From positions 1 through 40,203 of the forward strand of contig CAXMPS010000054.1 in the NCBI GenBank assembly GCA_964194995.1: a stretch of DNA of 40,203 nt, read 5' to 3'. The notes beneath the pieces are model-generated. The model was given only the letters and a program-made list of their open reading frames with translations, searched no databases and was not told the DNA's origin. Every line of letters begins with the position of its first letter. The stretch's first letter is position 1. This document shows positions 4,505-19,751 of this stretch, one piece after another. Source of the DNA: an uncultured Gammaproteobacteria bacterium (GTDB lineage Bacteria > Actinomycetota > Acidimicrobiia > Spongiisociales > ZC4RG35). Made by a program: the position numbers and the translations under genes.

Positions 4505-5018
4505 GGGAATCCTCTTCGTTCTCATGGCGATGACTGCCCTTGCCGGCGCCGTGACAGTGGTCGTCGCTAGAAACCCCGTGTATTCGGCGATGGGCCTGTT
4601 GGGGACTCTTTTCTCGGTGGCGGTTCTATATGTCGCCCAGCTCGCTCATTTTGTGGCCGCCGTTCAGGTGATCGTTTACGCCGGTGCGGTATTGACACTG
4701 TTTCTCTTCGTCATCATGTTCATAGGTGTTGACACGTCCGACGACAGAGACGAGCGACTCCCGAAACAGCGGTTCTGGGTCGGCATCATGGCTGGTGTCA
4801 TCGTTCTTCTCGCCGGCGGGATCACACTGGGTGGCAACTTCAATTGGGTGCCAGCCGCGATCGAAACCAATCCGGAGGCCACCAATGGGACGATTCAGGC
4901 CATTGCCGAGCCGCTCTTCACCGATTGGGTCCTGGCATTTGAGGCGACGGCGCTTCTATTGACGATCTCGGCCGCGGGTGCGATCGCCCTCGCCCACTTC
5001 AAGGGACAACGATCGTGA
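4497..5018 (+). CDS. nuoJ: NADH-quinone oxidoreductase subunit J
   Basis: NPVYSA and [18 protein letters not shown]; ATG 4497 preceded by GGAGGAGG. Confidence 0.95.
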
Positions 5019-16367: not shown

Positions 16368-16530
16368 GGAGTCTGCTGGGTAATGCCGTTGCTCGGATCG
16401 GCGGCCAGGCGCGCCACTCGCAAGGACGAGGTTTCGCCACTCCTTGGGGTGGAATGGCGGGGCCGAGGGCACCGTGAGTGGCGATGACCTGGCCGTCGAG
16501 ATGGGTGACATGCATTGCTCGGCGGGCTCC
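16368..16530 (-). mobile_element. MITE-like palindromic repeat, copy 2 (163 bp)
   Basis: Reverse-strand copy starting at the G of the TAG stop of the binding-protein gene; about 88% identical to copy 3 by manual count (19 differences). Confidence 0.85.
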
Positions 16531-17519
16531 TACACAAGACCCGCCTCGGCGACGAGTCGCGCGGCGACACCGAGCACGTCGGCCAGAGCCGAGAGGTTTA
16601 TGTCCGGTGCGTTGATTTCCGAGAGCTGGGGGAGTCCCTCAGCCGGGTCGACACCCTCGATCAAGGGGAACTCGAAGGTCTCCTTGGCGAAGTACGTCTG
16701 CGCTGCCGGCGTGAGCAGAAACTCGACGAACTCCCCGGCTGCGGTCGGCATGTTGGTTTCAGAGAGGATGGCGACTCCGGCGGGCATGACAAGAGTTCCC
16801 ACGTCGCCCGCCGGTATGAACCAGTTTTCGGAATCGTCCCCTTCGCCCTCGGCGCGGAGACGCAAAAGGTAGTAGTGGTTTACCAGCCCGCCTTCGATCT
16901 CACCGGAGTCGGCGGCGGCCACTATCGGGCTGTTCTTGGGGTAATCGATCGGGTCGTTGGCGGCAAGGGCCTCGAGCCATTCGAGAGTCGCCTCTTCGCC
17001 CCTTTCGAGGATCATTGCCGAAACAAACGCCAGGAATGACCCATTGGTAGGAGCAACACCGACCTGGCCGGCCCAGACCGGGTCGATGACGTCATCGATG
17101 GTGCTGGGGAGCGGCAGATCGCTCCCGGTGTTGTAGACAAAGGTGCGAACCCGCCCCGAAGTGCCGACCCAGCGACCTTGGTCGTCGGCGAATTTGTCAT
17201 CAACCAGGACGAGGACGTCGGAGGGAAGAACTGTCAACATGTCCGCGACCGAGCCAAGCGACGCGGGGTCTTGCGCGAAGAAGATGTCGGCTTCTGTTCT
17301 CTCGCCTTCCTCGATCAGAGTGGCGGCCAACTCGGTCGACCCGCCGTACCGGACTTCCACCTCGATCCCGGTGTCCTCGGTGAAGTCATCGATCAGCGGC
17401 TGGACCAACTCCTCCGACCGCCCCGAATAGACCACGAGGGGACCATCGGCCGCATCTGTCCCGGAGCACGAGGCGAGGATCAGGCCGCCGAGAAGAGTCA
17501 ACGCAAACAGTCTTTTCAA
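16530..17519 (-). CDS. Fe(III) ABC transporter substrate-binding lipoprotein (FbpA/FutA-like)
   Basis: Lipobox LASC, VYSGR, GRVR and LVNHYY (tandem Tyr iron ligands); TTG 17519 with AGGAG 7 nt upstream. Confidence 0.9.
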   Translation of the reverse strand: MKRLFALTLLGGLILASCSGTDAADGPLVVYSGRSEELVQPLIDDFTEDTGIEVEVRYGGSTELAATLIEEGERTEADIFFAQDPASLGSVADMLTVLPSDVLVLVDDKFADDQGRWVGTSGRVRTFVYNTGSDLPLPSTIDDVIDPVWAGQVGVAPTNGSFLAFVSAMILERGEEATLEWLEALAANDPIDYPKNSPIVAAADSGEIEGGLVNHYYLLRLRAEGEGDDSENWFIPAGDVGTLVMPAGVAILSETNMPTAAGEFVEFLLTPAAQTYFAKETFEFPLIEGVDPAEGLPQLSEINAPDINLSALADVLGVAARLVAEAGLV

Positions 17520-17531
17520 CCGAGAGCTCCT

Positions 17532-17557
17532 GAGATCGTTAGTTACCGAACGATCTC
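17532..17557. promoter_or_regulatory. Inverted repeat upstream of the iron ABC operon, candidate operator or leader hairpin
   Basis: GAGATCGTT-AGTTACCG-AACGATCTC, perfect 9-bp arms just upstream of the RBS. Confidence 0.4.
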
Positions 17558-17624
17558 GAAATCTATTACCGCCGAGACCGCTCTGCAACATTTTCTGCCA
17601 ACTCTCGGCGCCCGCTCTCGCTGC

Positions 17625-17669
17625 GTTGCTCGTGCTTAACGTCCCGGAAATCGGGACGTCTTGCACGAC
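17625..17669 (+). repeat. REP-like hairpin, left of the DUF559 gene
   Basis: GTTGCTCGTGCTTAACGTCCCG-GAAAT-CGGGACGTCTTGCACGAC; inverted copy at 18626-18670. Confidence 0.8.
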
Positions 17670-17718
17670 AGTGGACAAACGGGTTGAAGTTGGGTCGGTT
17701 TGGTGGCATTAGTCGGGT

Positions 17719-18648
17719 GTGGGGGATGATCGGCTGATCGATGTGTTCGCCTCGCGTCAGTACGGGGCGTTCAGTGTTGCCCAGGTCAGGGAGGCGGGTC
17801 TTGATCGCAGGGCGGTGAGTCGGCGCATTGCCACAGGGGCCTGGGTGAAGCTATGCCCGGGCGCATACGCGCTCACTTCGGCTCCGCCCATCTGGGAGCG
17901 GCAGCTCTCCGCCGCCGTGCTCAGCAGGTCGCGCGCCGTCGTGGCGGGCGCTTCGGCCGCCTATCTGCATCGATTCCAGGGTTTCGGCACGGAGCGTCCG
18001 GTGATCATGGTGCCGTGGAGCGGGAACGGCAGATCGCCTATCGCCAGAGTGATCCGATCCACGTTCTTTCTGACGGTGTCGACCGAGAGGAAGATGGCGT
18101 TCGTGACGACAACAGCGGCGGAGACCCTGCTGACGCTTGCCGCCTCTTGGAAAGAACCCAAGCTCGCCTCCTTGCTCGATGATTGTCTGCTGACCGGCAA
18201 GGTGAAGATCGATGAATTCGACCCGATTTTCGATCGTATCGTCGGGGCTCGGCTGGCCGGAGCGGGCCGGCTGCGCACATTGGTCGAACAGCGCCTTCCA
18301 GACGTTTTCGAGATCGGAGCTACCTATCTGGAGCGTTGTCTTCAACGCGTGCTCACCGACGATCGGATCCCGTCCTGGTCACAGGAACACCCGTTCTCGA
18401 TCAATGGGGCGCCTGGACGGGTAGACGCATTCATTCCCCACTGGCTACTGGTGGTCGAAGCAGACAGCCGTCGATGGCACGCCCGCCAAGCGGATTTCGA
18501 ATCCGATCGACGCCGGGACAACGGCCTTGCGGCTCAGGGAATACAGGTCTTGCGTTTCTCTTATTCGATGCTGACCAAGAGTCCCGAGCGGTGCTTGGTC
18601 AACATTCTCGACGTTGGAGAACACCGTCGTGCAGATGGTCCTGTTTAA
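17719..18648 (+). CDS. AbiEi-like N-terminal domain plus DUF559 (Vsr-like PD-(D/E)xK) endonuclease domain protein
   Basis: N-terminal RQYGAFS...AG...GAW...PGAY typical of actinobacterial AbiEi-like domains; C-terminal RVDA...LVVEADSRRWH...DRRRDN.L...G..VLRF typical of DUF559. Confidence 0.85.
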   Translation: MGDDRLIDVFASRQYGAFSVAQVREAGLDRRAVSRRIATGAWVKLCPGAYALTSAPPIWERQLSAAVLSRSRAVVAGASAAYLHRFQGFGTERPVIMVPWSGNGRSPIARVIRSTFFLTVSTERKMAFVTTTAAETLLTLAASWKEPKLASLLDDCLLTGKVKIDEFDPIFDRIVGARLAGAGRLRTLVEQRLPDVFEIGATYLERCLQRVLTDDRIPSWSQEHPFSINGAPGRVDAFIPHWLLVVEADSRRWHARQADFESDRRRDNGLAAQGIQVLRFSYSMLTKSPERCLVNILDVGEHRRADGPV

Positions 18649-18670
18649 CGGGACGTTACGCACGAGCAAC
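18626..18670 (-). repeat. REP-like hairpin, right of the DUF559 gene
   Basis: Reverse complement GTTGCTCGTGCGTAACGTCCCG-TTAAA-CAGGACCATCTGCACGAC; outer 22 bp match the left copy 21/22, 36/45 overall. Confidence 0.8.
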
Positions 18671-18677
18671 CAAAGTC

Positions 18678-19751
18678 TCACCCGACCAGTAGCGGGATCT
18701 CCACCTCCCGAGGGTCGAGTCCCCCGTGGTAGGCGCGGAGACGCTTGTCGAAGCCCGGGGGAAGGATGACTTTGCCTTTCGGCGCCATCACGAGGGCGTC
18801 TCCGACTCTCGCGCGAGCCGGGATTGCCAACGTGCCCTGGTACAGGGTGGTCGGATCGATCAGGTCGCCTCCGGTCAGCGAGGCGAAATCCTCGATCAGG
18901 TCACGGGCACCCCAGAGATGGACACCGCGGGTGTCACCGCCGAACCGGAGGGAGTCGAACCGCGGCTCCCTCACCAGCAACTTGTCCGAGTCGCTGTATT
19001 CGATCAACCCGTGGTCGGCGATCCCGATCAGGGCGACCCCAGGCGGGATACGAGAGGCCAATTCCTGCCAGACCCCGGCGGCGTACCGCATGGCTTCGGC
19101 GAACTCGGACGAATCGAGGCCGTGAACGTGGCCGGCGAAGTCGATCTGCCAGACGTAGGTGAAGATGAATCGTTTCTTCTCACCGGACAGTTGAACCGTC
19201 GCCTCCACGACGTCGCGGTCATCCCAGGCCGGCTCGAACCGGGCGCCGCGATAGAGCATCCGAGTCAGAGGGCTCCCCTGGAACGCAGCGGGCTGAACGG
19301 TGATCGGTTCGATGCCCTGGCCGCGAAGTCGCTCCCAGAGGTTCGGCCTGGGGAGGACGGAACCGTATGCGTGGGAGACCGGCCTCCCAGAAAGGTCGAC
19401 CCACTTCAGAGTGTTCACAACCTTGTCGAGATCGGGCAGCCACATCAGATGTGCGACGAGGCCATGCTCACCGGGGGCCAGACCCGTGGCCACGGTTGAG
19501 AGGGCGACGCTGGTCGTCGTTGGGAAAGGAGATTGGAGAACACCGCGATTCGACTCCCGGAAGACTGTGGCGTCGGGGTGATCCAACTGGGCTGTCCCCA
19601 AACCATCAAACAGAACAACGACATAGGTGTCCGCATCCGGAATCGACGCTGCGAGGTCAGGCTGCAGTCCGGAGAGGGAAGCCTCTCCTGTCATTCGGTG
19701 CTCCAACTCGCCCATCAGGTCGTTCAGATTGTTGGACGGCCGGAGCGACAT
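18678..19751 (-). CDS. Alkaline-phosphatase-superfamily nucleotide pyrophosphatase/phosphodiesterase
   Basis: LFDGLG, FPTTTS nucleophile region, DFAGH, ADHG and YHGG metal ligands. Confidence 0.88.
   Translation of the reverse strand: MSLRPSNNLNDLMGELEHRMTGEASLSGLQPDLAASIPDADTYVVVLFDGLGTAQLDHPDATVFRESNRGVLQSPFPTTTSVALSTVATGLAPGEHGLVAHLMWLPDLDKVVNTLKWVDLSGRPVSHAYGSVLPRPNLWERLRGQGIEPITVQPAAFQGSPLTRMLYRGARFEPAWDDRDVVEATVQLSGEKKRFIFTYVWQIDFAGHVHGLDSSEFAEAMRYAAGVWQELASRIPPGVALIGIADHGLIEYSDSDKLLVREPRFDSLRFGGDTRGVHLWGARDLIEDFASLTGGDLIDPTTLYQGTLAIPARARVGDALVMAPKGKVILPPGFDKRLRAYHGGLDPREVEIPLLVG

Follow-up and report, generated by a model that had tools for sequence, protein, structure and literature searches.

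The window examined here, a stretch of 40,203 nucleotides that makes up contig C54 of an uncultured Acidimicrobiia genome (GenBank CAXMPS010000054.1), holds a gene for a 309-residue DUF559 nuclease lying between two copies of a short palindromic repeat. Nuclease genes of this family and repeats of this kind are matched to each other: at 64 of 70 homologues from related genomes, both flanks carry copies of one repeat family, and the pairing is specific, cassette by cassette. We lean toward regarding the unit as a partnership of the kind known from repetitive extragenic palindromes (REPs) and REP-associated tyrosine transposases (RAYTs), built on an unrelated enzyme: a chromosomal AbiEi-EDxHD nuclease gene bracketed by repeats that its protein is predicted to recognize. 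The source is a metagenome-assembled genome of 2.37 Mb (519 contigs, 75.6% complete, 61% G+C), hereafter G000. G001–G003 are its congeners; other G-numbers denote related genomes, L-numbers loci, and C-numbers contigs.

Pairing of nuclease genes with their own repeats

The repeat pair around the nuclease gene was confirmed as real. Repeat finding in the window returned two arms of 49 nt each (Table 1) that are 80% complementary, with 948 nt between them. The outer 22 nt of the two copies match at 21 of 22 positions, the single difference being T/G, and the outer 22-mer occurs exactly twice in the window against an expectation of 0.00 from 100 shuffles. The copies enclose the open reading frame (ORF) and the 45 nt on its 5′ side, and nothing else. 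The stop codon TAA (18646–18648) falls at the loop of the right copy; the last nine codons of the gene are thus encoded by that copy’s inner arm. Inspection of the window found no direct repeat abutting the outer ends of the pair, i.e., no target duplication, and both neighboring positions lack an AbiEii nucleotidyltransferase gene, being occupied instead by genes for a solute-binding protein and a phosphodiesterase. An earlier reading made from the letters of the window alone (hereafter, the sequence-only reading) had described two inverted, imperfect hairpins that enclose only the gene and its upstream region, the 21/22 match of their outer parts, the stop codon in the right loop, and the lack of a target duplication and of an adjacent AbiEii gene, and on these points it was accurate.

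Bracketing was scored by local alignment (match +2, mismatch −3) on both strands. For each protein match, two regions were compared, one spanning −300 to +90 relative to the match start and the other spanning that interval relative to its end; a score of at least 35 counted as bracketed. From 86 listed protein matches in 41 related genomes, 70 homologues were taken. The 16 left out were six further matches of the unpublished genome G027 and ten short or broken pieces (G002:C18 (two), G019:C75, G019:C199, G028:C130, G028:C136, G002:C25, G005:C98, G004:C85, and G017:C4). Bracketing was found at 64 of the 70, with 55 scores above 50; leaving aside one unpublished locus (L020), the figures were 63 and 54 of 69. 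Among 80 named Acidimicrobiia records, 74 had at least 250 nt on both flanks, and 60 of these were bracketed (46 above 50). Because the two sets probably overlap in part, their counts are not independent. Both bear out the proposal of the sequence-only reading that the nuclease gene and its flanking hairpins constitute a specific, recurrent unit. Three of the six misses among the 70 have flanks cut by contig ends. At one of the six, the gene on C472, two tandem hairpins lie upstream and the contig ends inside another one downstream; at a second, G003:C33, the downstream hairpin is present and the upstream one has collapsed. In a phylum-wide sample, where the protein family was present in 56 of 121 genomes, ten of 27 homologues with full flanks were bracketed, all of them above 50, as were ten of the 24 from published genomes, again all above 50. 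Bracketing outside Acidimicrobiia is frequent but not universal.

Control positions behaved differently. Ten of all 613 gene-sized ORF positions of G000 scored at least 35: two DUF559 cassettes, seven positions with an abundant repeat of another kind (family C) on their flanks, and one other. Excluding the DUF559 cassettes leaves 8 of 611 random gene-sized positions. At 398 random gene-sized ORF positions of the same genome, the 95th percentile of the score was 27 and the 99th was 50. Mismatched flanks, in which the left side of one cassette was compared with the right side of another, scored at least 35 in six of 400 cases and above 50 in two.

Family C (core GCGCATATGTGCCGATATGCGC) is the commonest repeat of G000, with 76 core matches, and the seven gene-sized ORFs that it brackets are ordinary genes (contigs C13, C108, C331, C347, C354, C442, and others). 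Double flanking by an abundant repeat thus does occur, which is what would be seen if generic REP-like repeats piled up in intergenic DNA and flanked the nuclease gene by chance. Family A, to which the window pair belongs, has only three or four copies in G000, however, and two of them flank the nuclease gene; moreover, chance at the rates found for random positions and mismatched flanks does not account for same-family pairs at 64 of 70 homologues. These controls bring the coincidence explanation close to refutation, and we give it hardly any credence.

Two peculiarities of the cassette in the window that the sequence-only reading had noted proved not to be general. Orientation of the repeats follows no rule: the direct alignment was the better one in 36 cassettes and the inverted one in 28. 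The mismatched bubble in the stem, which had been put forward as a Vsr-type substrate, is absent from many cognate hairpins, which have perfect stems with no internal loop (e.g., those of G002, L017, and L077). The expectation that other DUF559 paralogues would have cognate flanking hairpins of their own fared better. There are three paralogues in G000 (and up to 15 per genome elsewhere), and each of the three carries its own family: A for the window gene, B for the gene on C369, and D for the gene on C472.

Each family A copy is an imperfect palindrome consisting of TCGTGC, a 4-nt internal loop, CGTCCCG, a 5-nt A/T-rich loop, and the return arm. A third copy, on C288, was aligned with the window pair; since all three match one oriented consensus (57–59 bits vs. 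18–25 bits when it is reversed), the element has a head, GTTGCTCGTGCKTAACGTCCCG, and both heads in the window face outward. Single-strand folding is strong for the left copy (−16 kcal/mol, z −4.4, equaled by 0 of 200 shuffles) and for the solo copy on C288 (z −4.25). For the right copy it is weak: −9.5 kcal/mol and z −1.5 on the plus strand, where 19 of 200 shuffles do as well, and z −0.5 on the minus strand. The cause is the inner arm of this copy, which encodes the end of the gene and has changed in sequence. Contigs of other samples have the change T18642C, which restores a pair in this copy.

A search of the genome for further hairpin copies, as the sequence-only reading had suggested, located them at gene ends, as REPs are. 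In G000, family A comprises the flanking pair, the solo copy, which begins 2 nt past the stop of an msrA-like gene, and a diverged copy on C11 (three close copies plus one diverged). It is a small, aging family in which the right-hand copy has decayed. Among the 41 related genomes, close copies (one or two mismatches) outside G000 occur only in G003, where the cassette recurs and a solo copy lies 3 nt past another stop codon; the G000 site orthologous to that solo copy was not assembled. Two genomes have single matches with three mismatches, and a reversed control pattern gives equally many. The family A hairpin was also seen in foreign flanks in contigs of other samples, at least three in X2 and one in X1, where the local depth is raised; these counts are minimal. 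All repeat counts for G000 are likewise lower bounds, because contigs start or end at or beside hairpins (C128 start, C472 end, C207 end).

Other families are more numerous. Family B, which flanks the C369 gene, has 12 copies in G000, ten of them no more than 65 nt away from a stop codon that ends an ORF of 150 residues or longer. Its arm motif matches 19 times on each strand in G000 and 21 and 22 times in G003, well over reversed-pattern controls, and at control level in G001 and G002. The outer 9–10 bp of both of its arms are invariant, and the center is variable. Family D amounts to about 11 hairpins in G000, as counted by exact 11-mers. Family A starts with GTTGCTCGTGC and family B with GAGCGTGTGCA. 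In G002, the same chromosomal slot holds a 47.5%-identical homologue flanked by two direct copies of a different, perfect hairpin of 54 nt, the two being identical at 53 of 54 positions. In G002, 35 forward and 29 reverse sites fit the arm motif of this hairpin, compared with 0 and 1 for the control; matches in G000, G001, and G003 are at chance level only. Because the G002 pair is almost identical mutually and to dozens of dispersed copies, flanking copies can be renewed from the family. Families A and B are each confined to G000 and G003, whose window-type nuclease proteins are 93% identical, and the G002 family to G002. These comparisons show repeat families that, as judged from their sequences, diverge by lineage together with the protein.

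The AbiEi-like module and the nuclease domain

Sequence profiles and a structural model portray the protein as a whole AbiEi-like DNA-binding module joined to an intact EDxHD nuclease (Vsr-like, of the I-Bth0305I type), in agreement with the earlier description of a Vsr-like PD-(D/E)xK nuclease fused to a DNA-binding domain. Pfam places AbiEi_4 at residues 10–53 and DUF559 at residues 242–298 and matches nothing else, with no transposase domain. Nine AbiEi models of PADLOC match the protein, and AbiEi models only; no NCBIfam family matches it. Across 34 homologues (21–92% identical to the query), D236, E247, H254, and D263 are invariant and D249 is found in at least 90% of rows; all five residues of this EDxHD set are present in the protein from the window. 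The AlphaFold2 model has a mean predicted local distance difference test score (pLDDT) of 90.6. With it, Foldseek matched the N-terminal ~195 residues to the whole AbiEi antitoxin 6y8q (E 9.6e-6, 198 columns) and to Rv2827c (1zel), and the last ~100 residues to the catalytic domain of I-Bth0305I, 3r3p (target template-modeling (TM) score 0.80), and to the DUF559 protein 3hrl. The Vsr structures 1cw0 and 1vsr were more distant (probability 0.99, target TM 0.52–0.54). A profile search of PDB sequences returned 3hrl at 3.4e-7, 3r3p at 3.5e-5, and Vsr weakly (E 0.11–0.61).

A modeled homodimer passed the mark for such models narrowly, with a score of 0.42 vs. 0.01 for the best of three controls; the runs share at least 82% of contacts, and the partner pLDDT is at least 82. 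Of proteins solved as same-chain pairs, 20 of 30 attained that mark, as did 1 of 23 proteins whose structures are single chains; these counts apply only roughly here because the run used a custom alignment. The modeled interface is symmetric and is formed by residues 249–303 of the nuclease domain. Since the entry 3r3p has this fold and contains two chains, the pass may reflect only likeness to, or memory of, that entry.

The identity of the N-terminal module raises the question of whether the repeats are purely regulatory or insulating sites. AbiEi antitoxins autoregulate via inverted repeats in their own promoters. By analogy, the AbiEi module could repress its own, potentially toxic nuclease gene through the upstream palindrome as an operator, the downstream copy could terminate transcription or form a loop, and the dispersed copies could be a small regulon or by-products. 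The match of the N-terminal 195 residues to a whole AbiEi, the position of the upstream copy 45 nt before the start codon, and the conservation of the outer arms as sequence, without covariation, all comport with this explanation. The dispersed copies do not: the ~35 near-identical copies at unrelated gene ends in G002 and the 12 of family B are too many and too uniform for operators. Further, a scan of positions 17450–18800 for promoters and terminators found no sigma-70-like promoter and no T-tract terminator at either copy, and the conserved, intact nuclease center would be left unexplained. We thus consider a purely regulatory role unlikely.

Table 1. Positions of the nuclease gene, its encoded domains, and the flanking repeats in the window
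Feature	Position	Strand	Remarks
Left family A repeat	17625..17673	+	Conserved 5′ arm 17625–17646; in the divergent region that separates the nuclease gene from the iron-type ABC operon; ends 45 nt upstream of the GTG
Nuclease gene, 309 aa	17719..18648	+	GTG start, TAA in right repeat; AbiEi_4 + DUF559
AbiEi-like DNA-binding module (winged helix + AbiEi C-terminal domain), predicted	17719..18303	+	~Residues 1–195; Foldseek, PADLOC
EDxHD/Vsr-like PD-(D/E)xK nuclease domain, predicted	18322..18627	+	~Residues 202–303; alignment, PDB profile, Foldseek
Right family A repeat, inverted	18622..18670	−	Conserved 5′ arm = outer 18649–18670; inner arm degraded; 7 nt from phosphodiesterase stop

Inheritance of the gene and turnover of the repeats

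The nuclease gene behaves as a resident, vertically inherited chromosomal gene and is not visibly mobile. Its 5′ neighbor is the divergent solute-binding protein gene of an iron-type ATP-binding cassette (ABC) operon, listed as an ORF at 16530–17678 (−); the likely start is a TTG at 17522, which is preceded by GGAG and followed by a signal-peptide-like sequence. The 3′ neighbor is a convergent type I phosphodiesterase gene, 18678–19751 (−). No methylase gene is found among the neighbors. The slot between these two genes is kept in G000, G003, G002, and L121, a named Acidimicrobiia record in which a 58%-identical homologue adjoins the phosphodiesterase gene. G003 is collinear with the window throughout the region at about 92% nucleotide identity, and the protein identities are 96% (phosphodiesterase), 93.5% (nuclease), and 92% (binding protein); for G002, they are about 59%, 47.5%, and 73%, respectively. 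Between G000 and G003, the ratio of nonsynonymous to synonymous substitution rates (dN/dS) is 0.080 for the nuclease gene and 0.086 and 0.141 for its neighbors. The dS of the nuclease gene (0.41 for 17719–18645 vs. G003) is above the neighbors’ 0.24 and 0.28.

Several side observations concern this region. A 22-nt palindrome, GATCGTTAGTTACCGAACGATC, lies at 17534–17555, between the start of the ABC operon and the left hairpin, and similar palindromes occupy the same place in G001 (L044, about 1569–1590) and G002 (L043, about 4886–4910). It may be an operator for an iron regulator of the IdeR/DtxR type. The phosphodiesterase orthologue of G002 (L043, G002:C5, 2622–3675) is in two pieces in different frames (residues 1–252 and 248–357), possibly because of a frameshift or an assembly error. 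In G001 (L044, G001:C86, 1657–4998), the slot contains two other genes, one for an 883-residue adenylate-cyclase/STAND NTPase and one for a DUF402 protein; a tandem pair of hairpins from a different family (GCGTGTGCA type) abuts the phosphodiesterase stop.

The sequence-only reading had cast the gene and its hairpins as a candidate mobile or selfish unit. One version of this would be a self-contained homing cassette: the hairpin-gene-hairpin unit moves, the nuclease cuts empty hairpin sites, repair copies the unit into them, and the solo hairpins are targets or scars. Such hairpins do exist, and the catalytic domain is of the EDxHD homing-endonuclease type. The number of paralogues, up to 15 per genome, would fit as well, as would the fact that the closest homologues from other genera (L014–L017, 41–48% identity) lack both window neighbors within their 1.5-kb flanks. 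Patchy presence, which had been anticipated together with empty sites, was found to the extent that G001 retains both neighbors and lacks the nuclease gene in the slot. By contrast, the slot is otherwise kept in four genomes with neighbors diverging in step, and in contigs of four public runs (X1, X2, X4, and X5) there was no joint skipping the cassette or a hairpin, although contigs cannot show absence. The dN/dS of 0.08 resembles that of the neighbors, and a tblastn search of 72,556 plasmid records found no relatives of the gene. Neither terminal inverted repeats nor target duplication would predict the mixture of 36 direct and 28 inverted orientations, and no target duplication is present in the window. 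Finally, a cassette inserted into a palindrome would have half a site on either side, whereas both palindromes here are whole. The claim of a mobile gene unit was therefore not sustained, and we regard a homing cassette as quite improbable.

The repeats themselves change between close relatives. Between G000 and G003, the left repeat has 3 differences in 49 positions and so does the right, near the divergence of the surrounding DNA. Three hairpin sites differ by clean, interior gaps of 33–43 nt that leave only the stem base (C288:23800–23850, C369:1874–1924, and C18:571–584 in G000). At the msrA site, 35 nt of the interior are absent from G003, where GTT...ACGCACGACGGT is left; at the repeat that precedes the C369 gene, 33 nt are absent from G003 and GAGCG|CACACGCT is left; and one family B site that is whole in G003 is reduced to GCTC in G000. 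Because the breakpoints differ, these three differences are best taken as deletions of palindrome interiors. Site-specific insertion was considered for them and rejected, since the short alleles keep unequal amounts of the stem base. Palindrome centers seem to be lost often. A separate difference was noted at C260:9004–9669 of G000, where ~666 nt with a TetR-like reading frame follow directly on a family B hairpin and are missing at the orthologous place in G003.

Relation to known systems and a possible mode of action

How does this unit compare with systems already described? It most resembles the REP/REPIN-RAYT systems of Proteobacteria. In both, the enzyme is encoded by a chromosomal gene of low copy number, copies of a short palindromic repeat flank that gene and are scattered at the ends of other genes, and every enzyme lineage has a repeat family to itself. 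RAYTs are vertically inherited and host-gene-like (PMC5581495), as is the nuclease gene here. The enzymes differ: here, a putative AbiEi module and a hydrolytic EDxHD PD-(D/E)xK nuclease take the place of an HUH Y1 (IS200-like) tyrosine transposase. A search for Y1 transposases (PF01797) found none in G000–G003, which are 76–95% complete; the same search matched 6 of 14 control genomes. REP/RAYT repeats carry a conserved GTAG or CGTC tag at the 5′ end (PMC3733652), and families A and B are without that tag. Also unlike the REP/RAYT arrangement, the flanking copies are direct as often as inverted, several paralogues per genome each have their own family, and repeat copy numbers are low. Of the sequence-only reading, the RAYT-like pairing of gene and repeat is supported, as is a REP-like dispersal of the hairpins; gene mobility and, as a general feature, the mismatch bubble are not supported.

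With EDxHD homing endonucleases (I-Bth0305I, 3r3p), the protein shares the catalytic fold and the E-D-x-H-D residues. I-Bth0305I is a multidomain homodimer with an N-terminal DNA-binding part and a footprint of about 60 bp around a pseudopalindrome (PMC3239194); the protein described here is likewise multidomain, with an N-terminal DNA-binding part, and its modeled dimer forms via the nuclease domain. Unlike those endonucleases, it is encoded between chromosomal genes in a conserved slot rather than in an intron, intein, or phage; the gene is syntenic, under purifying selection, and bracketed by two whole palindromes, and the DNA-binding module is AbiEi-like.

The resemblance to AbiE type IV toxin-antitoxin systems lies in the N-terminal ~195 residues, which correspond to the whole AbiEi fold (Pfam AbiEi_4), and palindromic DNA beside the gene recalls AbiEi operators. 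In contrast to AbiE, there is no adjacent AbiEii, the module is fused to a nuclease, and the repeats stand on both sides and elsewhere in the genome. The Vsr very-short-patch repair endonuclease has distantly the same nuclease fold, and several sources give homologues that name. It differs in its weak profile match and in the large N-terminal DNA-binding module present here; a link to T:G mismatches was not found, many cognate hairpins having no mismatch. Vsr acts on such mismatches with a Dcm-type methylase as its partner, and no methylase gene adjoins the nuclease gene. Transposons of the insertion sequence (IS) or miniature inverted-repeat transposable element (MITE) type are unlike the unit in that the latter has no target duplication, mixed repeat orientation, and no transposase domain.

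For the REP/RAYT-like partnership that we favor, we propose the following mode of action. The protein would dimerize via its nuclease domains, and its two AbiEi modules would recognize the outer, conserved arms of the ~50-bp palindrome, either in duplex DNA or in an extruded cruciform. The nuclease would then nick or cut near the palindrome center. Repair from other copies would keep the family uniform and would occasionally seed or remove copies. The gene-flanking copies might double as operator-like sites through which the AbiEi module regulates its own gene, and their presence beside the gene may be the trace of an enzyme at work close to where it is encoded. Binding of the outer arms by a dimer, central cutting, and operator use are suggested by the behavior of I-Bth0305I, the dimer model, and the invariant outer 9–10 bp of family B.

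A number of points weigh against this interpretation. Binding and cleavage of the repeats by the protein are predictions drawn from analogy, modeling, and sequence. Bracketing extends to no more than 10 of 27 homologues in the phylum-wide sample. In G000, family A is small, and its right copy hardly folds. Covariation was assessed in family B with 18 of the 20 copies found (L130 and L150 of G003 were dropped as orthologues of included rows); 89.5% of cells are paired, but the covariation did not go beyond shuffles, of which 170 of 500 were as high, and selection for the hairpin as such consequently has no support. Such repeats can also exist without this enzyme, as family C has no DUF559 partner among the three DUF559 paralogues of the 76%-complete G000 assembly. 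No gain of a repeat was caught, all three differences between G000 and G003 being best read as interior deletions. Lastly, to our knowledge, a hydrolytic PD-(D/E)xK nuclease alone cannot perform strand transfer of the HUH type.

A broader proposal, which we advance tentatively and consider rather doubtful, is that Actinomycetota hold a second, HUH-independent class of repeat-enzyme system, in which homodimeric AbiEi-EDxHD nucleases generate, homogenize, and prune their own ~50-bp palindromes by site-specific cutting and templated repair, with orthogonal pairs coexisting in a genome. A literature search, with supplements and subscription journals outside its scope, found no published account of this layout of enzyme and repeat, and the passages searched in PMC12306157 and PMC3733652 name no such enzyme.

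The findings bear on the origin and spread of REP-like palindromes in bacteria other than the Proteobacteria that have RAYTs. If the broader proposal were true, it would reveal a new way for REP-like DNA to originate and provide a natural collection of seemingly programmable nucleases with long sites. A large protein family that has gone unstudied, its members bearing no annotation beyond “very short patch repair endonuclease” or “AbiEi antitoxin domain protein”, is connected here with palindromic repeats, each gene with a family of its own. This pairing gives the proteins a testable substrate and the repeats a candidate enzyme, with several natural specificity pairs per genome; if the enzymes cut long palindromic sites, they would be a new source of rare-cutting nucleases.

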